From: Lophium mytilinum
Lineage: Eukaryota
Length of the DNA: 20,000 nt
Direction: 5' to 3'
Assembly (NCBI GenBank): GCA_010093605.1
Contig: MU004192.1
Coordinates: forward strand, 1,809,035 to 1,829,034
The translations under genes were made by a program, and so were the position numbers. Below are positions 2,325-20,000 of the stretch, piece by piece (positions within the stretch are counted from its first letter, which is position 1; each line of letters begins with the position of its first letter). Under the pieces are notes generated by a model, which saw nothing but the letters and a program-made list of their open reading frames with translations, was not told the DNA's origin and searched no databases.

Positions 2325-2424
2325 TAGTATACTTTATTTTATAGATTATTAATAGAAATTAAATAAGTTATAGTAATTTAAATTTAAATATAGTACTTTG
2401 GTGTTCTAACCCCTGCGCTTACGT

Positions 2425-2455
2425 AAGGTAATTATGCACCTGGCCGCGCCCTTTA
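2425..2455 (-). repeat. Right TIR of Tc1/mariner element
   Basis: Reverse complement is TAAAGGGCGCGGCCAGGTGCATAATTACCTT, followed by TA on the + strand. Confidence 0.9.
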
Positions 2456-3068
2456 TAGGTCCGTTGAGTCCTATTGCAATACCCCATCAACGTTATTAAC
2501 TAGAGGTATCGTGCGTGTGCAATATTTAGCGGCGAGCTTGTGAGACTTAGGAAGGGATATGCAAGGTTTATCTGAATGTCAAGCGTGCAAGCAAGCAACG
2601 CATCGCAGAATCCCGAAAGTAGATTAGGAGGATAACGGCTATTAGGGATATAGCCACGACGGTTTAGAGGACGTTCCCGGAGAAATGAAAATATCTAAAG
2701 TTTATAAGGGAGAAGGGAACACGGTGATAACGGGCCGGAGGATGTTCGGAAGTATCTCAAGAGCGTAAGGGAGAGGGGAAGTAGGCGTCGGCCAGTTTCT
2801 CGAAGACCTCGAGGTGGAGGGCTGGAGCCGATCTAACCTTGTGGGCTGATAATCCGGAGTCGGCGAGGGCTAGGAGCTTGTTAACTTCGTTGTCGTTGGG
2901 GATCACCCGGAGGTGGATTTTCCTTGACGATGGAGACGGCGCTAATTGTCACGAACTCTTTGATAGCAGCGGCGAAAAAAGAAGAGGTAGACGACGAACC
3001 CGCACATCACGAAGTCATGTTTGCAGTCAAGAGGTTTCAGGATTAAATGCATTAGATTTATGTCTTAT

Positions 3069-3235
3069 CCCACTGGCAACAGTAGGCAGCATCCCGTCGA
3101 CAACGGCAGGCAAGGGTCCCATCGACGACGGAAGATGGCAAATATCCCATCATCAATGACAGGCAAAGCCCTATTGGCAATAATAGGTAGATATCCCATC
3201 GGCAACGACAGGCCGATCCCACCAACCATGGTAGG
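3069..3235 (-). repeat. Hairpin array A: 7 units, ~24-nt period, 3' of the coiled-coil gene
   Basis: Units start at 3069, 3093, 3118, 3146, 3170, 3195, 3218. Plus-strand consensus ATCCCATCG-GCAA-CGACAGGCAGA; minus (sense) strand CCUGUCG-UUGC-CGAUGGG. Begins 19 nt after the stop at 3255. Confidence 0.93.
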
Positions 3236-3254
3236 CAGATTTCAGCTCCGCCAA

Positions 3255-4031
3255 TCACTCCTCTACTGGCTCATCCTCAAACTCCGCACCAGGGTCCCAA
3301 AAACTGAGATCTTCCTGGAGCCATTCCGGGTCGTCATCTTTCACCGGGTCCATGGCCATTGTTTTCCGAATGAGCGCAGTTTCCCCACCCAGGAGCTCGA
3401 TGGTTCGGACAAGATCCTCAATTTCCTGGTTTTGTGTTTGAACCATCTTCTCCCTGCGCCTCAGCTCTAGCCCTGCCTCCCGCCCAACCTCATGCCACCG
3501 TTTCAGGCTCTCGAGCCTAGCGGCGGCCCGGTTCCTTGCCTGATCCCGCTGGTGTCGTAGGCGGCGGATGACCTCCGAAGCTTGGGCGCCCTCAGCCTGG
3601 GTATCGAACGTCTCGTCCTCTGTAAGCGCTTGAAGCTGTCCTGGAACGGTGTTAGCAGTTTTGCGAGAGAAGGGAGGAGATGAATTACCCTTATGATATT
3701 CACGCTCCCGCTCGAGATCATCAATCCTGGAGTCCTTCGCTTCTGTCACAGCTTTGACGCGCGCATCAGATATCATCTGCGACAGCTTGTCGTTCGCTGC
3801 TCCTATTCGACTACTCGTCGAATCAGAAGAATCTATCTTCTCTCTTAAGCCCTCCAAAAGCACTAACTGGCGCTCGGCTTCATCCTCTAGCAGCCGGATC
3901 TTCTGTTCCGCGCTGAACTTCTCCTCGGCTCGGAGACTGACCATACTGTAGTCATCGAAAACATTCCTAATCGACCTGACATTTTCATCGACGGCGCGAG
4001 GTCGGGATCCCTTGGCGTTGCGATTCGACAT
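3255..4031 (-). CDS. Hypothetical coiled-coil protein (~258 aa) with acidic C-terminus
   Basis: Part of ORF 3255..4157. ATG at 4031 lies in a GCCACCATG context (MSNRNAKGSRPRAVDENV...). E/K/R/L heptad-like stretches; ends ...WLQEDLSFWDPGAEFEDEPVEE. Confidence 0.75.
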   Translation of the reverse strand: MSNRNAKGSRPRAVDENVRSIRNVFDDYSMVSLRAEEKFSAEQKIRLLEDEAERQLVLLEGLREKIDSSDSTSSRIGAANDKLSQMISDARVKAVTEAKDSRIDDLEREREYHKGNSSPPFSRKTANTVPGQLQALTEDETFDTQAEGAQASEVIRRLRHQRDQARNRAAARLESLKRWHEVGREAGLELRRREKMVQTQNQEIEDLVRTIELLGGETALIRKTMAMDPVKDDDPEWLQEDLSFWDPGAEFEDEPVEE

Positions 4032-4164
4032 GGTGGCGTTTTTGCGATGTTGGTACATGTTTTCAACCTCCCAATTCAAGTATTCGTAGCGACAATGCCA
4101 AGCCGGAAAGTTGATTCGCCGTGCCGAACCGAGCCGACCATAATGGAAGTGCATCACATGGGTG

Positions 4165-5155
4165 ATGGAGAAGGGGCAGCGGGTACCGCCTAGCTACAAC
4201 AAGATATGTCTACGGTGTTGGCATAGGAAGAGGAACCATGGGCCTTGGGAGAAGTGCCAGGAGGAGTGCGCCATGTGTCGCATTATGGACACTGCGGGAC
4301 GGCGTTGCCCAGAGTCGACGAAGTCGGAGAGCGGGTGGAAGAAGAGGACGGCGCCACCGGAATACTTCGTGAGTTTTGGAACCCTTCAACGACGCTTGAA
4401 TCTCTAACTCAAGCATAGGATCGGACCGTGCCGCAAGTGCCTCAAGGGATGTACGCCTTTGGAGCGCCACAGGGAGCACCACAGCCGTCCGGCTCCACGC
4501 CGGAGCAGGTGATGGCTCTCTTGGAGCGGTTCGGTCAGCAGGGCCAAGAGCCTGTCTTCGGACCGTAGGGCTAAGGAGCCTCCCCGGCTGTCGCGCAGTC
4601 CGCGCAGCCGCTACAGGCAGCCCAAGTCTCGCGAGCCTCGCAAGGACAGCCGCCGCCGGTGGATAGGGAGGAGATGGAGAGGCTGAACGAGAGGGCGGAG
4701 GACTCGCTCGCGGAGGCGCGGAAAGAGCATGAGGCGAGAGAGGCGGAGCAGGAGGCGGAGCGCGAGCCAGCGCTCGCTCGTGCCTTGAACCAGAGTGGGA
4801 TCGAAGGCTTCGCGATCGCCGCCAAGAAGATGGAGAACGCACTCCGGGTACAGGAGTGGCAGGACCAGCCACGACGCCAGTAGCCACCTCGTGTGGATGC
4901 CGAGGAGCGGAGGAAACGGGAGGATGATATGAAAGCCGAGCTCGGGGAGCTTCACAAGCGGGCTGCGGAGAGGACGACGGCGAAAGAGGAGGCGGAATAT
5001 GCGAAGGAGGAGCAGGAGAGAGTGGAGGCGGAGAGGAAGAAGGAAGAAGAGGAGAAGAAGGCGGGGAGGAGACCATGGCGGAAGAGAGGAAGCGGCATGA
5101 TGCCAGGCGGATGGCCGAACATGAGAGGAGATTGGAAGAGAGGGATGGGGTGTGA
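4165..5155 (+). pseudogene. Two-exon gene with Cys/His zinc-knuckle-like N-terminus, Q/P-rich linker and E/R/K coiled coil; disrupted
   Basis: Exon 1 4165-4368 (CLRCWHRKRNHGPWEKCQEECAMC...GRRCP). Intron 4369-4418 (GTGAGT, CTAAC at 4404, TAG) joins in phase 0 to the frame of ORFs 4659 and 4893. In-frame TAG 4566, TAA 4572 and TAG 4881 fall in Gln-rich context (CAG/CAA>TAG/TAA, RIP type). Apparent frameshift near 5060, with the E/R-rich tail ending at TGA 5153-5155. Confidence 0.75.
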
Positions 5156-5167
5156 GTGCGTGTTTCG

Positions 5168-5280
5168 CCTGTCGTTGCCGATGGGACTATCTCTGTCATG
5201 GCTGATGGATTTTCTGCCTGCTGTTGCCAGTGGGATCTGCCTGTTATTGCCATTGGGATATGCCTGTCGTTACCGATGGG
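5168..5280 (+). repeat. Hairpin array B: 5 units, 3' of the zinc-knuckle-like gene, inverted relative to array A
   Basis: CCTGTCG-TTGC-CGATGGG (5168), TCTGTCA-TGGC-TGATGGA (5192), CCTGCTG-TTGC-CAGTGGG (5217), CCTGTTA-TTGC-CATTGGG (5240), CCTGTCG-TTAC-CGATGGG (5263). Starts 12 nt after the inferred stop. Confidence 0.93.
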
Positions 5281-6549
5281 AAATAGTTAGTTCTAGGGCG
5301 CACTCCAATGTGAGCTTGTGAAATGGGTATGAAGCATTACATCGTGAAATTAGAACCATTGCGCTCCTCTCCGCCTCGCATTCATGTAGACCATCCCGAT
5401 TGTTCATACCATCATATTTCGCGTCTGATCGTCCGCTTGTGGGCCTTCCTGCCTGTGCAGGGTTGTGTCTTATACGTCTCTTGAATAGGGCAGGTGGTCA
5501 AATTTTGTCAAGACTGCACAGTCAAAGACCAGCCCCGACTCCATTTTTTCATCCCCTCTCCAGAGATTCCGTCAAAATCAAAAGACGCATAGAAGGGAAT
5601 GAATTGGAGTATAAAAGAGTACATAATCTAGCCTACATGTTCATGGGCTTACCTATACCTCGAGTCTCCGCACAGAGTAGTGGAGGCACATTCCGTATAT
5701 GATTGTCCAATACCCACCGCATTCGCCTCGCCCAACCCCGAAAAGCACACATCCTTCTCAGGCTAAGTAACCACGGCGATGCACATCGCCAGCAGGCGTC
5801 GCCATAGAGTATACCCCTCCGCGTGAGGAGGGTCGGCATATGAAGGTTCCACGTTGAAATGGTGGTCGAGACAGCGTGTGGCGATTTGCAGATGAGTAGG
5901 GCGCGACGGTCGGAGGACTATAAAGGCAAGAGGCTGGGCGCCTCAGTAGTCGTAATTCTATAGCGAAGAGAGTATCAGCCGAGCGTTTGCATTGATGGAG
6001 TGGTGAATATTGATGGCATGAGGTGAAAATCTCGGCGGGCGGGGATCAGGGGGATCGGCCGTGCTTGGCATGATGACTGTCCTCAGTCAACGACATTCCA
6101 AGGTTAGAGCGATCTCTCTTCTCTAGAATATGGTACGTCCAATTTTGAGCACTCGCATGGCTCACATTGTGCCCAGAATTTAGCGACAATCTGGGCCACC
6201 CTAGACAGTGCCGTTCGAACGTTCATTTGCTCTACAAGATCCTCGGATTTGAAAGGTCGAAGCTTACAGTCTGATTCAGACTGCAGATTCCAGCGTGCTA
6301 GACGACGCTCAAATCTGCAAGCCGCACTGTGCACGTTAAGCCTAGACTTTAAAGGCATTACCGAGGGCATTCAGACGGTTGCGCCCGAGGTTCATGTGCT
6401 GTGCTTCGCAGCTCCTATTCGAAAGGTCAGCTTGAAATAGTTGGAACCCGCGCTTATATCGACTCAAGTAGTCGATGGTGCTTCATGGGCGCAATGTGCA
6501 AAGCAGGTACGCAAATGTGGTCGAATGATTGAAGATCTACAAAGCTAAC

Positions 6550-6666
6550 CCCAGACGCCGACCCAGGCAAAGCCCCACGCGCAGGCGTAGGCAGAGGTTC
6601 CATACGCAAGTATAGGCAGAAGTCCCATACGCAAGTATAGGCAGAAGTCCCATACGCAAGTATAGG
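6550..6666 (-). repeat. Hairpin array C: 5 units, three nearly identical 25-mers, 3' of the spliced Cys-cluster gene
   Basis: Plus strand: CCCAGAC-GCCG-ACCCAGG (6550), CCCACGC-GCAG-GCGTAGG (6574), then (T/C)CCATAC-GCAA-GTATAGG at 6599, 6624 and 6649. Sense strand CCUAUAC-UUGC-GUAUGGG. Starts 42 nt after the stop at 6709. Confidence 0.92.
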
Positions 6667-6708
6667 CAGTAGAATATCCAAAAAACGCTCCTCGGCGAAC
6701 TCATTCCA

Positions 6709-7644
6709 TCAAAGGGGAACCCAATAACCACGATTCCTCCACGGAAGCTCAGGATCCCCGCCGGGAAGAACGAGCAAATATTCCCCTTCCTCCTTTTCTG
6801 TCCCATCTTGCTCCCTCTCCGCTTCTATCACGACGCATGGTCGGGTTTTGCAAGCGACGCATGCTCGTTTTCGCTCCAAGCCCTCGGTCCACACCACAGG
6901 CGCCCTCCTGAGCGAAAGACTACCAAGGCACCGGCCTCTCTTCTCCTCCGATATCAGCCATGGAGGCGTCCTGTCAGCTTTGAACTGGAGGTTTATGGCG
7001 TTGTTTAGCCAATCCTTATCCTTTTCGTCCAGTGCGCTGATATCCCTCTCCTTGCCTTCTCGCACAAGCAACCTCCTCGGAAGCTTATCAAAGACCTTTT
7101 GGTCAATCCTACGACCTGGAATGGCAACCTTGAGGGGCGGAGTGGTTCCGCTCGGCGTCTCCAGAGTGGGCGCGTCTGGCTGCGGGGATAGGCGTCCTGG
7201 ACTGCTACAAAGACCTGAGTTAGCAACGCCAAACAGGATTAAGTGGCAGACCTACCTCGTCCTTGTCCTTCTCCTACTGCGCTTTGCTGGACGCCCCTCC
7301 GCGCCCTCCTCGGTCTCACTGTCATCATCTTCCAACAATTGCCCCATTGTTGGGCGAGGCGAGCTCGTACTTGCAGCCCCGAACGGTCTCTGCCCCACAA
7401 ACGTACTGCCCCTGCGAGATCGCTCGCTAGTACCCTGTCCGCCTCGGACAGTCCTGTTGTGCAGTAAGCTCGAACCAGGGAGTGGGGCGCTCGAACGCTG
7501 CTCTGCGTTATGAGCCAGCTCCATAACTTGCCTGAGATGACTCGACGCTATCATGCGTGCCACTCGAGGGTGACATGCGGTCCTCATCCCCGCCAGCACG
7601 AAGCGGCGCACTCGGTCCTTGTCCTCATCAGCCGTCGGCTCCAT
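6709..7644 (-). CDS. Hypothetical two-exon protein (~294 aa) with basic NLS-like patch and C-terminal Cys cluster
   Basis: ATG at 7644 (MEPTADEDKDRVRR...). Exon 1 7644-7256; intron 7255-7205 (GTAGGT, GCTAAC, TAG; 51 nt); exon 2 7204-6709 joins in frame to ORF 6709..7071. Motifs RPAKRSRRRTR and GRCLG...ACVACKTRPCVV...LPWRNRGYWVPL. Confidence 0.8.
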
Positions 7645-9183
7645 GCTGATGTGTTGGTTGGTTGGCGTTGAACGAGCCACGCCCAGAATACGCAGAGAAG
7701 TAAAATGTGAGTTTAATCACGTGTTCAGGCTTGGCGCCGCACGGGACGTTATCGACTCAATTTCGCAACGCCTTCCCTTCCTTATCCACGGCCATCATGT
7801 GGTCCCAAATTACAAGGATAGAGATGTCATCCTTGCCGCCGCAGCGGGAAAGAGGGGTAATTAGACCTAGAGTTAGAAGGATCAGGGCATAGTTAGCTGT
7901 GCGGAACAGCCTTAAGACTAGAAACTAATTACTAATCCTAATAAAGATAATCTTCTATATATAGCTAGGCAGGTAGCTTATATACTAGGCCTAATTTAGA
8001 GTAGATTAAATAACCCTAATAGATCTATAGAGGCTAGAATATAAGTCTAGTTACTATAGTGCGTACTATTATTATAGAAGCTTTATAAGGGTTATTCTAC
8101 TATATTTCCGCAGTAATAATTATAGCTTACTAGTAATTATAATTATCTACTACTACTATATAGACCCTAAGAGGCTATTCTAATATACTATAGATAAAAT
8201 AAGTTCTAGTTCCCCGCTAGTACTAAATTCTAAATAGTATAGATATGCAACTCTTACGCCCTTTAAGTAGCCTGCTAATATAAGTAGTAGTTAATCTATT
8301 TAAATTAATCTTAGTTTAATAATTAAATTTTTTATTTTAGTTATAATTAAAGCCTTTCCTTAGTATATTTTCTAGCTAGATTCTATTAGTATTATTAATA
8401 ATATAGAGTAGGGCTTTAAAAGTATTAATAGATAGTAAAGATTTATAGTACTATAAAGGTTTAGTTTTTTCTAGTCTATATAAGATTCTACTCTAGAAGC
8501 TATTCTAGGTCCTTCTCTTCTAACGTGCGGTAATATTTAATCTGCGTATTAAAGAATAAATAAGTAAACTTACTTATACTTAATAATAGTTTATTAGTAT
8601 ATATAATTATAGAAGCTTTATATTTCTTAACTAACTCTAAATCTTCTAACTAGATGCGTCTTAATAGTATACTTTTAATAACCTAAATAGCCTAACTCTA
8701 TATTACTATAACGCCTAGGCTCTTAGTATTCTATATCTATATTTTTATTATAGAAGAATTTATTAGGTATATTCTAATAGTTCTAAGTAAAGAGGTTGTA
8801 ATAATATATTATAAAAGGAAATAATAATAGCTGCAGTCTAAGAAGAGAAGATATAGTAAGATAATAGAATACTAGATAGAAATATAGATTAAGCTAGTTA
8901 TAGACTAAGAGTAATAACCTTATTAAGACTTCTAAAGTAATAATCTATAAGTTATATTTACCTATTAAGTAGTAATTTAGTACTGCTAATTAAACCGCCG
9001 GCCTTCTTACTTATACTAAGGCGCGGTTACTCTAATAAAGAAATTATATAGCTATTTTAGAAAATATAGCTTAACTATAAAATTAAAGAATAGGTAAGAA
9101 CTAAGATATAAATTATAATATTTATAGAGGAAACTTGCACTAGAAGAAAACTATTAAGGAAATATATAAATTTAAGGTAAGAT

Positions 9184-9370
9184 CCCGCTAACTATAGTAG
9201 GCAGGTCCTATTAGTAATAATAGATAGATATTCTATTAGTAATAATAGAGAGATTTCTATTAGTAATAATAGGCAAATTCTATTAGTAATAATAGGTAGA
9301 ATCCCGTCGGTAATAATAGGTAGAATTCTATTAGTAATAATAGGTAAAAAATCCTATTAATAAGAATAGG
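9184..9370 (-). repeat. Hairpin array D: 8 units, RIP-mutated copy of the array A/B consensus
   Basis: ATTCTATTAGTAATAATAGGTAGA-type units derive from ATCCCATCGGCAACGACAGGCAGA by C>T/G>A changes only. Less mutated remnants CCCGCTA-ACTA-TAGTAGG (9184) and CCCGTCG-GTAA-TAATAGG (9303). Starts 10 nt after the inferred stop at 9381. Confidence 0.9.
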
Positions 9371-9380
9371 CAAATATAGC

Positions 9381-10970
9381 TTACTAGGGGCCCGTTTTTA
9401 GACGCCGCCTTACTCTAGCTATCTAGAGCTCTAACTTGCTAGGGCTAATATCTATAGCCTCTAAAGATTAAATAAGATAATTTAATATAGTAAAACGGGC
9501 TAAGAACTTACTTTAGACCTCCCTCTATAAGTTCTTAATCTCCTTCTAACGCTAGACTACCTAAGCTTCTAGCTTAGCATAGCGCTTTATAATACGTAAG
9601 CCCTCCGCATTAAGATTTACTTTAAAAGGCGTAAACTTTAACATCTACTTATAGAACTTAGCCTATTAGAACTTATTAATACTATTAATACTATTATTAT
9701 TTAGCCCGGCAGGATAATAATAAAAGCTACTACCTCTACTAATATTAGTATTAGTAAGCCTAGTAAATAAAATCTCTCTAAATATAGATTACTTCCTAGA
9801 TACTATAAGAAAAATTAAAAAGTTTCTTATATAATACTTATTCTTAAAAAGGTAAATATATACTACCTCTATAAGATATATAAGGTAATTTAAGCTAGAA
9901 TGCGCATTATACTACTACTTGCGCTTTATTATATTCTTAGCGTACCTAATATACTATAGTAGTAGAAATAGAGGACTCTCTATATCCTCTATAAGACTCT
10001 ATATCTTTATTCTTACCTTAAGATTATTATAAAATCTAACTAAGATATTCTAGCGCAATAAATTCCCTTAATTAGTATTACAACTAAAATAATAATATTT
10101 CCTAGACTATATCTTAGCCTTTATTATTTCTAAGCTAATAGCATTATTAATTTAATAGGCGGTAATCTAATTAAATAAGCTATTTCTAAGATAGCTTCTT
10201 AATAAAGCTATTACGCGCATAAGCTTATCTAGTATAGGCAAGTTACTGCTAGCATCTACTAAAATCTAATTATAAATTACTAGTTACTAACTAGACCGGC
10301 TATAGAGTAGATTAATAGACTAAACTATATTCTCTTTACTAGAGAAATATATATAGGTAAGGTTGCCGCCTATAATTTTCTAGAGAACTAATAGATATAC
10401 TACTATAAGAATCTACTAGGTAGCCTGCATCTAGAGCTTTATATTAATAAGCTATATAAATGTGTTCTAGTACTCTTTAAGCTTTTCTTTCTTAAAAACC
10501 TCTCTAAGTAACCCCTCTAGGCCCCCGCCTACTAAAGCTATTAAGTATTTATTTTAAATAGATTAAATAGTAAAGGCCTTATAATTATACTCTTCTTAGG
10601 TCTATAGAAGAGCTTTAAGCTTACCTATATTCTATAAGTCTTCTAGAATATTAAACTTACCTCTATTCTTAAGGTAATCTTCTTTATCTTTACTCTTAAA
10701 GAAATTATCTTATATTAGCTAGGCTATCTTCTTATAGCTTACTAACTTAGGCGCCCTTAGGCGCTAATAAATATTCTTAAATATCTTATCTAACCCTACT
10801 GCGTTACTAGATGTCTCTTTCTTAGCCTTCTAGGTCTTCTTAGAGTTACTAGATATCTTATCTTTACTCTCTATAACCTCTAGAATCTCTATCCCTTCCT
10901 TACTTTAAGAAATTTTATCCTTCTTATCTTTACTATCTAAAGCAATTTAACGTTATTTACCGCAATTTAT
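9381..10970 (-). pseudogene. RIP-killed ~530-codon gene with GIY-YIG-like nuclease motifs and C-terminal coiled coil
   Basis: All segments read by eye share one frame. Literal VIYN*ILVD ... YIRYAKNIIKRK**YNAHSSLNYL ... REILFTRL ... YYPAGLNN de-RIPs to VIY..ILVD / YIGYAKN..KRKQQH / GEILFTRL / HYPAGLN (YI[G]Y at 9942-9953, YPAGLN at 9699-9716). Charged N-terminus; probable start ATA(<ATG) at 10970. Confidence 0.7.
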
Positions 10971-13085
10971 AGCGCCGCGTTAATTTACAGTATTAAGAGT
11001 AAGAAAATAAAATAAAATACGGGCGGCGATAGAATAGGTGCTAGTTACTATAGTTACCGCAGTTGCTAAGGCGCTAAATTAATCTACGCATTACAATCTT
11101 CCTATAAAGTACTAACTATATTTATCTTAAGATAGTATATTACTGCCCTAACTATAATAACAACAGTAGCTAGTAATAATATTATTACTAGTGTTATTAG
11201 GTAATAGTAGTAAACAACGGTAGTAAATAACAGTAGTAATAAAAAGGGTTAGTTTCTAAAAGTTCTCTATATAATTTAGTATTACTAGCGTATATTTTAT
11301 ATAGGGACGCTAATTTAATAAGGGTTAGGCTATTTAAATATTAAATATATATATTTATTTTTATATATACTAATAATACTTAAAATATTTTAAGTAGTAC
11401 TAGTATATACTATAATAGCGCTAGGCTAATACTAGATATACTAAGTAGATATAGTCTATTTAGATTTATATAGAAGCTAAGCTATACTACTTAATAATAA
11501 TTATATATTAAACCCCTTTAAAAAAATAGTTTAATACTTTACCTAATAAAATAGATAAATATAGTAAGTTATAGTAGTTATAGTATATAGAAGTACTATT
11601 TTATAATAAAGCATCTATATTATTACTACTAGTACTATTTTAACTATTAGATACCTAATATTTAACTTAGTTTCTTAATATAGCATATACTAGATTACTT
11701 AAAAATTAAAAGTAATAACTATTACTAAAAATAATTAAGCAATTTTAAAGGCATATTAACGGGCATAAAAGCGCGGTTATAGTAAAATTTTTTTTATAAG
11801 ATTTAGTAAATATTTTACTAAGCTACTTAAAGTAGCTTTAGTAAGCTTATTTTATATAGTAGGGACGTTAAATTAGAGCTTATTTTAGTGCTAAAACCTT
11901 ATTTTAACGCCGCAATTTCTAATTAAAAGCAAAATAATAGCTAAACTAAAGCGTTTTAAATTATTTTTAATTCCTAATATAGTAGAATTTGGCATAGAAT
12001 AGAGAAAAAATATAAAAAATATAATATTACTAAAATAATATATATATATATATAGATACCTTAGAAAGTATTAAATATAGCTAATAGTAGATACTATAGT
12101 AATTACCCCTTATACTAGTATTTTAAATTACTACTATATATAATATATTATATCTAGATTATCTCTAGAATATATCTAGAATATATTAAGTATCTATAGT
12201 AAGTATATAATATTTATAATAAATATCTATTCTATAAGATTATATATAGGTAATAGTACCTTACTAGTATATTTTAGATATAATTACTAGTATAGTATAT
12301 ATATAGTATTAAACTAGATATAAGAGATCTTAGAAAGCTAATATAATATATACTTTAATACTAAGGCTTACTACTCTTTAAAGGTAATAATAAAAATAAC
12401 CCTTTTAAATTTCTATTCTAGCTTAGTAATATATATTTCTACTCTATATAGCTTTATTATAAAGCTATTTAAGTTATATAAGATTCTATAAGAGAAATTC
12501 TATTAAAGTTCTATAATACCTACTTTTATACTTAGGCCTATTACTACCTAAAATAAGAAATTAGAATTAACCCTTAAAAATTTATCTATCCGCCTAAGAC
12601 TAAAACCTTTAACTACTAATACTAAAAAATACTAGATGCCTAAACTTTAGAAGGGTAGAATTAGTAGAAACTTTTATATACTATAAAGACTTTAACTTAA
12701 GTTATTCTTAGTAGTATCTTAAAACCTAGATAACTATATAACTAAAAATAATAATCTAGTACTTTTAAGTTTCTATATTATTAACTAGACCCTATCTAGA
12801 TAGCTAAGGGCGTTTTAAAAGGTATCTATTAGTAGTTATAAAGAAGTATAAACCCATAATTTTTTTTTAATTTTATAGCTATACTATTAACTCCTTACTC
12901 CTTTTATAAATAACTAGCAAGCTAAATTACACTTAAACTAAGAATTCAGAATAGTTAAGCAAGTTAAGCGAGTTAAGTTTAGCCCAATTAATACCCCCCC
13001 TAATATCTTTATCTACCCATATATAGTTTCTATAGTAAAATATTAACTTTTAAAGCTTTCTAGTAAATATAAGTAATAGATATTA

Positions 13086-13565
13086 ACTTACGGGTCTTAA
13101 AACCAGTTAGAAGGGCTAGCATCTTTAGTAGAATAGAGAGTAGAAGAGTTAGAAGGGAAAAAAGAGCTAGAATAGCTATTTTTAATAGAAGCCTTCTCCT
13201 TTTCCTTAAGAGAAGTAAGGGGTTTTTCAGCAGCAGTAGCAGCAGTTAGAAGCTCTAATTAAAGTATAAATTAGCCTAATATAAAAGGTAAAAAAGGGTT
13301 AAAAGATAAGTACTTACTTACTTCTAAATTGCGAATTTCTCTAGTATAGCATTTACCTAGAATTTGCAATTAAACTTTTAAATTTATAGAAATCCTTTTT
13401 AGCGTCTCAACCCTTCTAAAAAAAAAGATTAGTATACTAGAGAGTATATAAAAGGGTTTATATTAAAGGGAAAGTTAAAAAAGTTAATAAAAAATAGTAA
13501 ACTTACTTCTTTAACTTACACTCTCTAGGTTTAGTTTTGCTCCCCTTAGGTCTTCCACCCTTTAT
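13086..13565 (-). pseudogene. Relic of a small multi-intron gene beginning with an AT-hook-like motif
   Basis: KGGRPKGSKTKPRECKLK from 13565. GTAAGT donors at 13506, 13321 and 13091, the first two with CTAAT-type branch sites and TAG acceptors. Exon 1 splices in frame to RVETLKRISINLKV*LQILGKCYTREIRNLE. Confidence 0.4.
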
Positions 13566-15557
13566 AGTAGATTTCTACACTCTAAAAGCGCGAGAAATTA
13601 TTAAAATAATTACTTAAGGTAAAAGAGCTCTCATCTTTTATTATTAGAAGAAAGAGAAGAGAGTTAGATAAAGAAATAAAGAGTTATCTTAGGGTTCTTT
13701 TATATCTAATAATTCTACTAAGATAGAAAGCTCCAATCGGCAATAAAATTAGTGTTAGGCGTTAGCTAAGAGTAAGTCTAAAGCTTAGAAATATAGATTA
13801 ATAATAGAGTAGATCTAGATACCTTAAAATTATAAATATTTAATAATCTATAAAGCTAACCCCCACTTCTAGAAAATCTAGCTCTTAAGCTAAGAAAGTT
13901 AAAACTTATCTACTACCTATTTAAGTATAAAGTGCGGATAAATTGGCATATAGTATAGAAACTCTTACTTAGTACTAATTAGGTATAGCTATTACTAGAA
14001 AGAGTAGATTTAGTAAGAAATTCTAGAGTAAAGCTATTAAGATAAGAATTACACTAGAATAATACTCTAAACTAGCGCATTTTTCACGCCTTATAAAATT
14101 AGCATCTATTCTAAGCCTAAAAAGGTAATATAGGTATTTTATATAGAGTAGATTATAAGTAGTCTTAAAGTATAACCCTTATATTTATAGCACCTTTAAA
14201 TCTCTAGAAAAGTAAAATTACAGTAGATAATAGCTATTTTTTATTAATACTATTAGCTATATCTAACTCTATTAACTAAAAGACTTATATATATATAGAC
14301 CTATAATAGCTTTATATATTATATAAGTAGTAAGAGTTTATATCTAATAAGTAGGCTAATATAAATTTAATAAAAAAAAGATACTTACTTACTAAACCTA
14401 AGTACCCTAGCTATTATAGTAACTAACTAATACTAGTTATTATTAATAAAAAAGTATATAGATACTCTAGTATACTATATATATACTTTATAGCTATAGG
14501 CCTACTCTATAGACTAAGTAAATATTAATAGCTAAAGTAAACTAAATATACTTTAGAGAGAAACTCTAAGCTAAAAAATAGATATAAGGTATATATAATA
14601 GATATACTATAGTTAGACTCTATAATAGCTCTATATAAGTATAGAAATACCTAATTACCTAAAAGAGATATAAAAGGTAGTATATAGAAATAAAAGATAT
14701 ATTTAAGTACTTTATTTTATAAAGTAATAAAAAGTTATATAGAGAATTAGTATAAGTCTAAAAGAAATATCTAATAGCTTATATATATATAGTTAATAGG
14801 TTTTATACTCTAAACTCTATAATACTTAGTAGTTATATTCTTAAAGATTTTAGTAGTAGTATATCTTATATATTTCTACTTAATATTAATACTTAATACT
14901 AGTAATATTATAATAGGCCTCTAAGCTAGTTTAAGAGTAGTAATAAGCTAAATATAGTATATAAGCTTTTATAAAGGTTAATAATATAAGTAATATCTAA
15001 TATACTTTCTATCTATCTTAGTATAGCTAAGACTCTATCTTAAAGAAATTATTATCTTCTTTAATAAACTTAGCTATAGCTTATACTTAGAGTTTCTAGA
15101 TACTCTAAGATATAGTATATAAATATATAGCTTAGTATAGAGTAGATAATTAGTAGTAGATACTTTAGTATATAAGAGTTATAGTAGATAGCTATCTAAC
15201 TATATAAAATAATAATTATTAATAAATACTATAGTAATTATTACTTAGTCTAATATATAGTATATTTTAGTATTTAGAGTTACTATATATAGTACTACTT
15301 AGTATATACTATATATTTATTAAAGAGTTCTATTCTAGTAATAATTAGATAGGGGTAATCTACCCCCACCAGATTAACTTAGTAGTACCCTATTAACCTA
15401 GCTATATAATATTAATATAGCTTTATCTTAACCTTATTTATATCTAAACTAGCTATTCTATTATATTCTAGAATCTAAACTATACTATTTAAGCTATAAA
15501 GATATATACTCTAATAGATAAACTATAATTAAACCTAAAGTAAACTAACTATTATTA

Positions 15558-16372
15558 NNNNNNNNNNNNNNNNNNNNNNNNNNNNNNNNNNNNNNNNNNN
15601 NNNNNNNNNNNNNNNNNNNNNNNNNNNNNNNNNNNNNNNNNNNNNNNNNNNNNNNNNNNNNNNNNNNNNNNNNNNNNNNNNNNNNNNNNNNNNNNNNNNN
15701 NNNNNNNNNNNNNNNNNNNNNNNNNNNNNNNNNNNNNNNNNNNNNNNNNNNNNNNNNNNNNNNNNNNNNNNNNNNNNNNNNNNNNNNNNNNNNNNNNNNN
15801 NNNNNNNNNNNNNNNNNNNNNNNNNNNNNNNNNNNNNNNNNNNNNNNNNNNNNNNNNNNNNNNNNNNNNNNNNNNNNNNNNNNNNNNNNNNNNNNNNNNN
15901 NNNNNNNNNNNNNNNNNNNNNNNNNNNNNNNNNNNNNNNNNNNNNNNNNNNNNNNNNNNNNNNNNNNNNNNNNNNNNNNNNNNNNNNNNNNNNNNNNNNN
16001 NNNNNNNNNNNNNNNNNNNNNNNNNNNNNNNNNNNNNNNNNNNNNNNNNNNNNNNNNNNNNNNNNNNNNNNNNNNNNNNNNNNNNNNNNNNNNNNNNNNN
16101 NNNNNNNNNNNNNNNNNNNNNNNNNNNNNNNNNNNNNNNNNNNNNNNNNNNNNNNNNNNNNNNNNNNNNNNNNNNNNNNNNNNNNNNNNNNNNNNNNNNN
16201 NNNNNNNNNNNNNNNNNNNNNNNNNNNNNNNNNNNNNNNNNNNNNNNNNNNNNNNNNNNNNNNNNNNNNNNNNNNNNNNNNNNNNNNNNNNNNNNNNNNN
16301 NNNNNNNNNNNNNNNNNNNNNNNNNNNNNNNNNNNNNNNNNNNNNNNNNNNNNNNNNNNNNNNNNNNNNNNN
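15558..16372. other. Assembly gap (815 N)
   Basis: Run of N; true distance and contiguity across it are uncertain. Confidence 1.
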
Positions 16373-19905: not shown

Positions 19906-20000
19906 AGGGTTAGGGTTAGGGTTAGGGTTAGGGTTAGGGTTAGGGTTAGGGTTAGGGTTAGGGTTAGGGTTAGGGTTAGGGTTAGGGTTAGGGTTAGGGT
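19906..20000 (+). repeat. Telomeric repeat (TTAGGG)n, right chromosome end
   Basis: AGGG followed by 15 perfect TTAGGG units to the window end, with the G-rich strand running 5'->3' toward the end. Confidence 0.98.

Follow-up and report, generated by a model that had tools for sequence, protein, structure and literature searches.

Tandem arrays of one strand-specific hairpin behind neighbouring subtelomeric genes of Lophium mytilinum, a possible protein-binding platform in 3' untranslated regions

Why would unrelated neighbouring mRNAs carry head-to-tail arrays of one small hairpin, an arrangement that resembles the artificial MS2 or PP7 tags of RNA tracking? The question is posed by a 20,000-nucleotide (nt) stretch of the Lophium mytilinum genome (contig MU004192.1, forward-strand positions 1,809,035 to 1,829,034; called the window below), for which an original prediction had reported four such arrays, each just behind the stop codon of a gene dissimilar from the others. 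We tentatively favour the answer that the arrays are multivalent hairpin platforms for an RNA-binding protein, lying in the 3' untranslated regions (3'UTRs) of species-restricted subtelomeric genes and spread as a module between gene ends; this is a plausible reading rather than a probable one. In such a platform, the 5–8 units of an array would form a multivalent docking site for one hairpin-specific RNA-binding protein, which would govern mRNA stability, translation or location, and the array itself would move as a module from gene end to gene end by duplication or recombination. The starting points are observations, namely the fold, its strand bias, the presence of arrays in RNA and the position behind two annotated genes. 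An RNA platform is favoured because it suits the strand-specific wobbles, the repetition of the unit, the constancy of the loop G and the flanks, the freedom of the inner stem, and the presence of an array in the transcript of the first of the genes (gene 1).

When the sequence was read directly, the four arrays were found where they had been predicted, with array 4 running to 9362 (Table 1), and the 7, 5, 5 and 8 units counted in them proved to be 16 clean units, one degenerate unit and eight units degraded by repeat-induced point mutation (RIP). Together these make about 25 units of 23–27 nt, each a hairpin of 7 bp with a 4-nt loop and the form CCU-R-NNN-YKGH-N'N'N'-U-GGG-A. The 16 clean units, all in arrays 1–3, read on the sense strand as (C)UG-CCU-R-NNN-loop-N'N'N'-U-GGG-A with a linker of 5–7 nt and a spacing of 23–27 nt: the base of the stem is constant (C-G, C-G, U.G, R-U), the three inner pairs vary, and the 3' GGGA is followed by a short pyrimidine-rich linker. 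As had been claimed, the outer CCU...GGG motif is constant and the loop is mostly UUGC (9 of 16 units; the others are UGGU, UUGA, UUGU, UGGC, UUAC, CUGC and CGGC); 15 of the 16 have G as the third loop base. Positions C5, T6 and G20 do not vary anywhere in the alignment, and conservation of the loop G is 90% or more. These constant positions, lying outside the varying stem, point to sequence-specific recognition.

The spacings are 23, 25, 24 and 24 nt in array 1, 24, 25, 23 and 23 nt in array 2, and 25, 25, 25 and 24 nt in array 3. The program Tandem Repeats Finder (TRF) reported periods of 23–25 at arrays 2–4 (for array 3, period 25, 3.3 copies and 96% matches) and made no call at array 1, which is periodic on inspection. 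A head-to-tail unit of 10–100 nt has the form of a plain minisatellite, although this is a likeness of form only and leaves the covariation unexplained. A protein-coding repeat can be ruled out, the spacing not being a multiple of three and a codon signature being absent; at 5168–5280, codon-position GC shows no coding pattern (0.53/0.51/0.55).

Within the window the unit is confined to the arrays. The motif CCTNNNNTTGCNNNNGGG, allowed at most one mismatch, gives 14 matches against 0.40 expected, a number reached by none of 200 shuffles, and all 14 lie inside arrays; a RIP-tolerant scan in purine/pyrimidine letters found tandem runs of units at the four arrays only, with isolated matches elsewhere. 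A covariance model was built from the 16 clean units and run over the window with filters off and E-values up to 10. It returned 32 matches. The 21 with E<0.05 fall without exception inside arrays and have the predicted orientation, and the best of the others has E 0.42; those in array 1 have E-values of 1.5e-7 to 0.015. Five units of array 4, which were outside the training set, match the model at E 2.7e-4 to 2.8e-3 and on the minus strand only. The array 4 units comprise seven from the purine/pyrimidine pattern scan and one more at 9345–9362; the unit at 9303 is half mutated, a RIP-degraded example reads CCTATTATTACTAATAGA, and the RIP indices of the array are 1.32 and 0.23. Between the stop codon of gene 3 and array 3, an extra, fully paired 7-bp/4-nt hairpin (CCGAGGA-GCGU-UUUUUGG) is present at 6678–6695 on the minus strand; it could be a worn first unit or a chance hairpin, and it is not among the model matches at E up to 10.

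The fold is strand-specific, and what is kept in the inner stem is structure rather than sequence, in agreement with the original prediction on both counts. In the sense alignment 95.2% of 105 cells pair, compared with 76.8 ± 2.4% in 500 shuffles, none of which reached the observed value, and 35.2–48.6% when the partners are slid; at least six different inner stems keep their pairing, and both-sided changes occur at 4 of 7 pairs, in 21 cells. In the reverse-complement alignment pairing falls to 76.2% of cells, because the U.G of pair 3 (found in 14 of 15 distinct units) turns into C.A and the G.U of pair 4 turns into A.C (in 8 of them). On the sense strand 12 of the 16 units are fully paired, on the antisense strand 1; the minimum free energies for arrays 1–3 are -66.7, -41.3 and -44.6 kcal/mol in sense and -44.5, -22.8 and -29.7 kcal/mol in antisense. 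The conserved U.G also argues against arm copying of a DNA palindrome, which would erase it. Array 3 has the inner stems AUAC, ACGC and GGGU, and double changes of transversion type are seen only between its units and the rest (AU and GC at 9-16, CG at 10-15, GC at 8-17), where pairing is still maintained.

Evidence from RNA comes from one public run of another study, which is not recorded as RNA and whose contigs we compared with positions 2400–11000. The run holds spliced RNA, since it contains three spliced joints and gives no cover over the RIP blocks; its contigs cover 3085–8033 without a hole, whereas 2400–2973 and 8140–11000 are covered by DNA runs and not by RNA. An independent library thus has arrays 1–3 within its spliced RNA contigs. 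The contig over gene 1 (contig 13, 3085–4793), in which a joint 3639>3688 with CT..AC ends removes exactly the gene 1 intron, holds six of the seven units of array 1, and array 2 is covered by contigs 14 and 15. Arrays 1 and 3 begin 19 and 42 nt, respectively, past the stop codons of the two annotated genes, in sense orientation. Two introns on the opposite strand, both canonical, end in arrays 2 and 3: each acceptor lies inside the outermost unit, after AG, at an identical position within the unit, and the shorter side of the joint 5262>5652 is only 27 letters long. A place in 3'UTRs, as originally proposed, is therefore supported for array 1 by the spliced gene 1 contig, and is qualified by these antisense introns and by the presence of annotated genes at only two of the arrays.

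Several further points tell against the platform and should be set beside this evidence. Everything comes from one locus, of the four 'genes' only two, both species-restricted, are annotated, and no candidate for the binding protein was identified. No more than three arrays lie beside a gene against which their orientation can be judged, so chance is possible (at a rough 0.25 per array, about 0.016 for three). The RNA contigs carry no strand information, RNA runs on beyond arrays 2 and 3, and the opposite-strand introns ending in them mean that both of these arrays are also transcribed in antisense. Measured against dinucleotide shuffles, the folds have modest z-scores (-2.8, -2.3 and -1.7), in a comparison where similar units can pair with one another and the strands differ in composition. 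The double changes within arrays 1 and 2 are all of transition type (C-G to U-A, G-C to A-U), and covariation of this type can also be produced by RIP-like mutation on both strands. Because the units are related by duplication, the independent compensatory events number roughly 6–8 and not 21, so the covariation that had been proposed is present at the pairs named above with fewer separate events behind it than cells. No relative was found in Rfam or in three DNA collections, which hold no fungal genomes and so say little about fungi.

How the arrays are related to one another bears on how they might spread. In a whole-array alignment, units 3–7 of array 1 are colinear with units 1–5 of array 2. 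An 18-nt hairpin of the GUCG type is identical at 3195 and 5168, with different linkers, and a shared GUCA unit, at 5192 in array 2, differs from its homologue at 3146 in array 1 by a compensatory change from C-G to U-A at the outermost pair. On the strength of this colinearity and these shared units, both arrays would derive from one array that was copied, inverted, to the end of an unrelated gene. They are mutually inverted around 1.9 kb, their outermost units differ (ACUG vs GUCG), and no flanking direct repeat was seen on inspection. Array 3 has unit types of its own and a recent three-unit expansion, in which 6624 equals 6649 and 6599 differs at two bases. DNA contigs cross arrays 1 and 2 unbroken at single-copy depth, which implies that no other locus has the same neighbouring units, diverged arrays elsewhere being possible.

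Spread of this kind could also suit a selfish structured repeat, that is, a small non-autonomous mobile or recombination-prone module, similar to bacterial repetitive extragenic palindromes (REP) and bacterial interspersed mosaic elements (BIME), which is copied via single-stranded DNA or RNA. We regard this as possible but on balance unlikely, and would say the same of its corollary that the copying machinery needs the hairpin and that gene ends are tolerated places of insertion. The arrays are the only sequence common to the four sites; all four are clustered within 6.3 kb of the subtelomere, with none in the remaining 13.7 kb of the window; arrays 1 and 2 are colinear yet inverted behind unrelated genes; array 3 has recently expanded; and array 4 sits in RIP-mutated DNA, which is usually repeated DNA. 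These features sit well with a mobile repeat, whereas the unbroken single-copy contigs through arrays 1 and 2 do not, and the conserved U.G is more RNA-like than DNA-hairpin-like, though T.G is tolerated in DNA. A scan of 11 open reading frames (ORFs) and six read-through frames of the window turned up no family of nuclease, transposase, HUH nuclease or recombinase, and the suggested likeness to REP and its RAYT transposase remains one of analogy. Neither a terminal inverted repeat nor a target-site duplication is visible by eye on the array flanks, where no search aimed at target-site duplications was run, and the array tips, as inspected, do not look like transposon ends.

A selfish repeat is compatible with a protein-binding platform, and so is a third reading, which we consider doubtful, in which the hairpins are signals of the 3' end itself that aid the ending of transcription, direct cleavage or block 3'-to-5' exonucleases. 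Its functional analogues would be the hairpin rule of giant viruses and the 3' inverted repeats of organelle and bacterial mRNAs. The gene 1 contig terminates at 3085, within the final unit of array 1, and no RNA lies farther left, which hints weakly at a 3' end; RNA depth falls across array 3 from 159.6 (the contig mean for 5652–6629) to 28.2 (contig 18, 6640–8033); and the arrays occupy nearly the whole of an expected short fungal 3'UTR. On the other side, contig ends and mean depths are weak evidence, contigs break at repeats, and a depth that is the mean of a contig cannot place an end. RNA crosses array 2 with no fall in depth (122.7 followed by 80.4, to which the spliced form adds 57.2), no loose poly(A) ends are reported at the arrays in the RNA contigs, 7-bp stems are weak blocks, and a purely structural block has no need of constant loop or flank bases.

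The same constant bases count against neutrality. A neutral palindromic minisatellite, spread by subtelomeric duplication, would owe its position and orientation to coincidence and its pairing to descent combined with transitions on both arms. The units are clearly related by tandem duplication, the covariation of arrays 1 and 2 is all of transition type, only three tests of orientation are possible, and array 4 shows that heavy RIP can leave a 6-bp A-T hairpin without selection, all as such a repeat would have it. A neutral origin is nevertheless unlikely, and to us a little more so than a 3'-end signal, because the transversion-type double changes of array 3 still pair, at three pairs, because few inner cells are unpaired (4 of 33 in arrays 1 and 2 by manual count, three being C.A or A.C and one T.T) where independent mutation of the arms would give far more, and because the outer CCU/GGG, the loop G and the flanks are constant while the inner stems diverge.

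It is very unlikely that the arrays are instead 3' splice sites or terminal exons capturing convergent transcripts. In favour of this, the antisense unit ends in YAG|G behind a pyrimidine-rich stretch, CTAAC abuts arrays 2 and 3, the two antisense introns seen are both fully canonical and stop at one and the same position of whichever unit they meet first, and depth declines about 60 nt into array 3. Against it, pairing is poorer on the antisense strand, which would leave the hairpin without a role, CTAAC is missing beside arrays 1 and 4, one joint rests on its short 27-letter side, and cryptic acceptors are expected in any CAG-rich repeat. The CTAAC branch-site motif (GTTAG on the array sense strand) lies 1–6 nt from the last hairpin of arrays 2 and 3, at 5286–5290 and 6545–6549, and may be part of the element or there by chance. 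Arrays 2 and 3 are convergent, and the 1.27 kb separating them (5281–6549) has an RNA depth of 80–160 and outward canonical introns on both strands, from which it follows that this stretch is transcribed both ways into the arrays. Neither an ORF with a codon signature nor a Pfam family was found in it, and it may represent a pair of overlapping non-coding or read-through transcripts.

Table 1. Positions of the hairpin arrays and of adjoining features in the window.
Feature	Positions	Strand	Details
Array 1	3069–3235	-	7 units: clean hairpins at 3069, 3093, 3146, 3170, 3195 and 3218, and a degenerate unit at 3118–3138
Array 2	5168–5280	+	5 units: 5168, 5192, 5217, 5240, 5263
Array 3	6550–6666	-	5 units: 6550, 6574, 6599, 6624, 6649
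Array 4	9184–9362	-	8 units worn by RIP-type transitions (C-to-T, G-to-A)
Canonical intron antisense to array 2	5264–5652	-	GTAAGC, CTAAC 5290–5286, CAG; joint 5262>5652 (cut +1), CT..AC, depth 57.2
Canonical intron antisense to array 3	6507–6566	+	GTACGC, CTAAC 6545–6549, CAG; joint 6503>6564 (cut +3), GT..AG, depth 159.6
Gene 1	3255–4154	-	coiled-coil protein; 48-nt intron 3640–3687; annotated product of 242 aa (hypothetical protein, Lophium mytilinum)
Gene 2 remnant	4420–5155	+	plus-strand codon signature; transcribed; stop at 5153–5155
Gene 3	6709–7644	-	annotated hypothetical protein of 294 aa, only in Lophium; P0003 at 99% identity
'Gene 4'	9371–11100		RIP-destroyed, unrecognisable; 69 stops in one frame
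AT-rich RIP-mutated block	7900–15557	.	contains array 4 and the unrecognisable 'gene 4'; GC 0.19–0.29; TA/AT 1.67–1.76; (CA+TG)/(AC+GT) 0.16–0.22

The genes that adjoin the arrays differ in how well they can be read. The annotated gene 1 protein (P0001) equals the ORF minus 16 aa; in a search of 5.8 billion proteins the one further relative was a 170-aa protein from Mytilinidion resinicola with 39% identity, and the ESM Atlas returned coiled-coil look-alikes only. Gene 3 is annotated with an intron of about 52 nt (7203–7255, donor G|GTAGGT) that holds an in-frame TAG at 7252–7254. The RNA contig over it (contig 18) runs through without a joint, so the form that was assembled seems to be the unspliced one, which would end the protein at 130 aa. 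An ESM Atlas lead to DUF3716 (0.81) for gene 3 was not supported by Pfam.

Gene 2 looks like a transcribed, unannotated pseudogene whose original stop lies 12 nt ahead of array 2. Its codon-position GC follows a high-low-high pattern, in one frame over about 4420–5075 and in another from 5076 to the stop at 5153–5155. An in-frame TAG at 4881–4883 and the change of frame, which falls within an (AGG)n-like stretch at about 5005–5075, are not assembly errors, because the RNA contigs, of which 13 and 14 cover the gene, carry the letters of the DNA. No protein match was obtained for gene 2 in a word-indexed search (79–254 aa) or in an exhaustive search of 1.84 billion representatives. On the minus strand, a 347-aa Pro/Ser-rich ORF at 4210–5253 starts 10 nt past the antisense splice acceptor in array 2. 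We judged it unlikely to be the true gene at this array: its codon-position GC (0.69/0.69/0.48) mirrors the plus frame of gene 2, and it is therefore probably non-coding. Both of the in-frame stops seen in the gene island, in genes 2 and 3, are TAG.

'Gene 4' yielded no Pfam family in six frames (with stops read as X), and no family above threshold was found by Pfam for the 11 ORFs. Thus, of the four distances to a stop codon that had been given (19, 12, 42 and 10 nt), the first and third hold for annotated proteins and the second fits the local codon signature, while the last is meaningless because 'gene 4' is unreadable. The dissimilarity of the four genes stands in so far as no two of the three readable products are related (lowest pairwise E-value 0.067), a result by which genes 1–3 were rejected as paralogues; as genes, two are annotated, one is pseudogene-like and one is destroyed by RIP. 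No similarity beyond the arrays was found between the four sites even with transitions ignored, using purine/pyrimidine 26-mers, and since such 26-mers match only array to array, the flank of array 4 was also rejected as a RIP copy of genes 1–3.

The locus lies near the end of a chromosome. The repeat AGGGTT (the TTAGGG-type telomere repeat) occurs in 15.8 perfect copies at 19906–20000, up to the window end, and the window therefore reaches the chromosome end, with the arrays 10–17 kb from it. A gene island at about 2500–7900 (GC about 52–61%) is flanked by AT-rich blocks with RIP dinucleotide indices of 1.67–1.81 for TA/AT and 0.12–0.37 for (CA+TG)/(AC+GT). In the block at 7900–15557 no ORF of at least 70 aa was found, and an assembly gap of 815 N lies at 15558–16372, within the RIP block. 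The telomere repeat, the spliceosomal introns and RIP together establish that the locus is nuclear and not mitochondrial. To the left of array 1, a 32-nt stretch (2867–2898) has two differences from other long contigs of the same genome and recurs in both DNA runs and in the RNA-type run, as a short dispersed repeat. At the left edge, on the minus strand, 2–421 holds the start of a gene with a signal-peptide-like hydrophobic N-terminus and a strong codon signature (third-position GC 0.74), which runs off the window and has no Pfam family.

That no fungal element of this kind has been described, as the original prediction supposed, agrees with our searches. Rfam gave no matches at or above the gathering score over the whole window and both strands. 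A two-unit pattern was scanned against metagenome contigs of the Joint Genome Institute (JGI), viral contigs and 185,579 prokaryote species represented by one genome each, giving 47, 2 and 28 loci, respectively. The 47 metagenome loci were rejected as relatives, since counts made by script over all of them and inspection of 15 showed simple 12-nt or coding-type repeats without hairpin complementarity. Over all 77 public loci the covariance model found no array and gave two single matches with E of about 0.004, so the model, which recovers the arrays in the window on their predicted strand, finds nothing comparable at these unrelated loci. In the literature, supplements aside, such an element was not found described for fungal nuclear genes, and the accessible part of the Cenococcum genome paper (PMC5023957) contains nothing on such repeats.

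Each of the readings would have its own consequence. If the binding protein exists, the arrays would represent a new post-transcriptional control of species-restricted subtelomeric genes in Dothideomycetes and could serve as they stand as an orthogonal RNA tag. Should the module be mobile, it would illustrate the spread of a structured regulatory element among eukaryotic gene ends. If neither holds, the locus would be an example of duplication and RIP-type transitions imitating covariation.

Among known systems, a few can be set aside on a single feature. In the introner-like elements of Dothideomycetes the repeat itself is, according to the accessible part of one paper (PMC4457414), a spliceosomal intron removed from mRNA. 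Such an element is ruled out here, since arrays 1–3 are retained in RNA contigs and only the outermost unit of arrays 2 and 3 is intronic, on the other strand. The iron-responsive element (IRE) has the loop CAGUGN and a bulged C five pairs below it; all 16 of the Lophium loops are 4 nt long, none is CAGUGN and there is no bulge, which rules it out. The Smaug/Vts1 recognition element (SRE), a hairpin system known in fungi with the loop CNGG(N), is similar in having a short stem of any sequence and a small loop with a key G at position 3, and is ruled out in turn because CNGG occurs in 0 of 16 loops.

Other systems share more. The hairpin rule of Mimiviridae also places structure-defined hairpins just behind unrelated genes, at mRNA 3' ends, but it uses one long hairpin per gene with no conserved loop, whereas the Lophium genes are nuclear, have spliceosomal introns and carry arrays of 7-bp hairpins with a conserved loop and flanks. 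The GC-rich palindromic clusters and double-hairpin elements of fungal mitochondria are of an 18-nt class, start with CC, end with GG, flank genes, are thought to be mobile and may process RNA; they differ in being mitochondrial, the Lophium locus being nuclear, and their sequences are unrelated. Closer still are the hairpin clusters of animal 3'UTRs, such as the five IREs of the transferrin-receptor mRNA and the stem-loop clusters bound by Roquin (constitutive and alternative decay elements, CDE/ADE, for example in the Ox40 3'UTR), the latter with a pyrimidine-purine-pyrimidine triloop. Like the Lophium arrays they comprise several small hairpins with constant loop or closing features, a covarying stem interior and the possibility of multivalent binding. 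They are, in contrast, few and irregularly spaced and have other loops, whereas the Lophium units follow one another strictly head to tail at 23–27 nt with a YKGH tetraloop and a conserved U.G.

The bacterial REP and BIME elements have units of 20–40 nt, usually in alternating orientation, and a Y1 HUH transposase (RAYT). They too are clustered imperfect palindromes behind gene ends, with strand-specific single-strand folds, a presence in mRNA 3' ends and probable mobility, and the Lophium arrays share their form, being extragenic imperfect palindromes near gene 3' ends (19 and 42 nt) that fold on one strand. The differences are that the Lophium units are direct repeats in a eukaryotic nucleus and that the ORFs and read-through frames of the window contain no Y1 HUH transposase. 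By analogy, the closest likeness in function is thus to the animal 3'UTR hairpin clusters and in form and position to REP/BIME, the arrays being a member of none of these systems. It is improbable, although attractive in what it would unite, that they are a eukaryotic nuclear counterpart of REP/BIME or of the attC sites of integrons, a module defined by structure and strand which would mark the 3' ends of species-restricted subtelomeric genes, be copied between gene ends by a dedicated single-strand-specific enzyme and be read in mRNA by a hairpin binder; one element would then both move and regulate.

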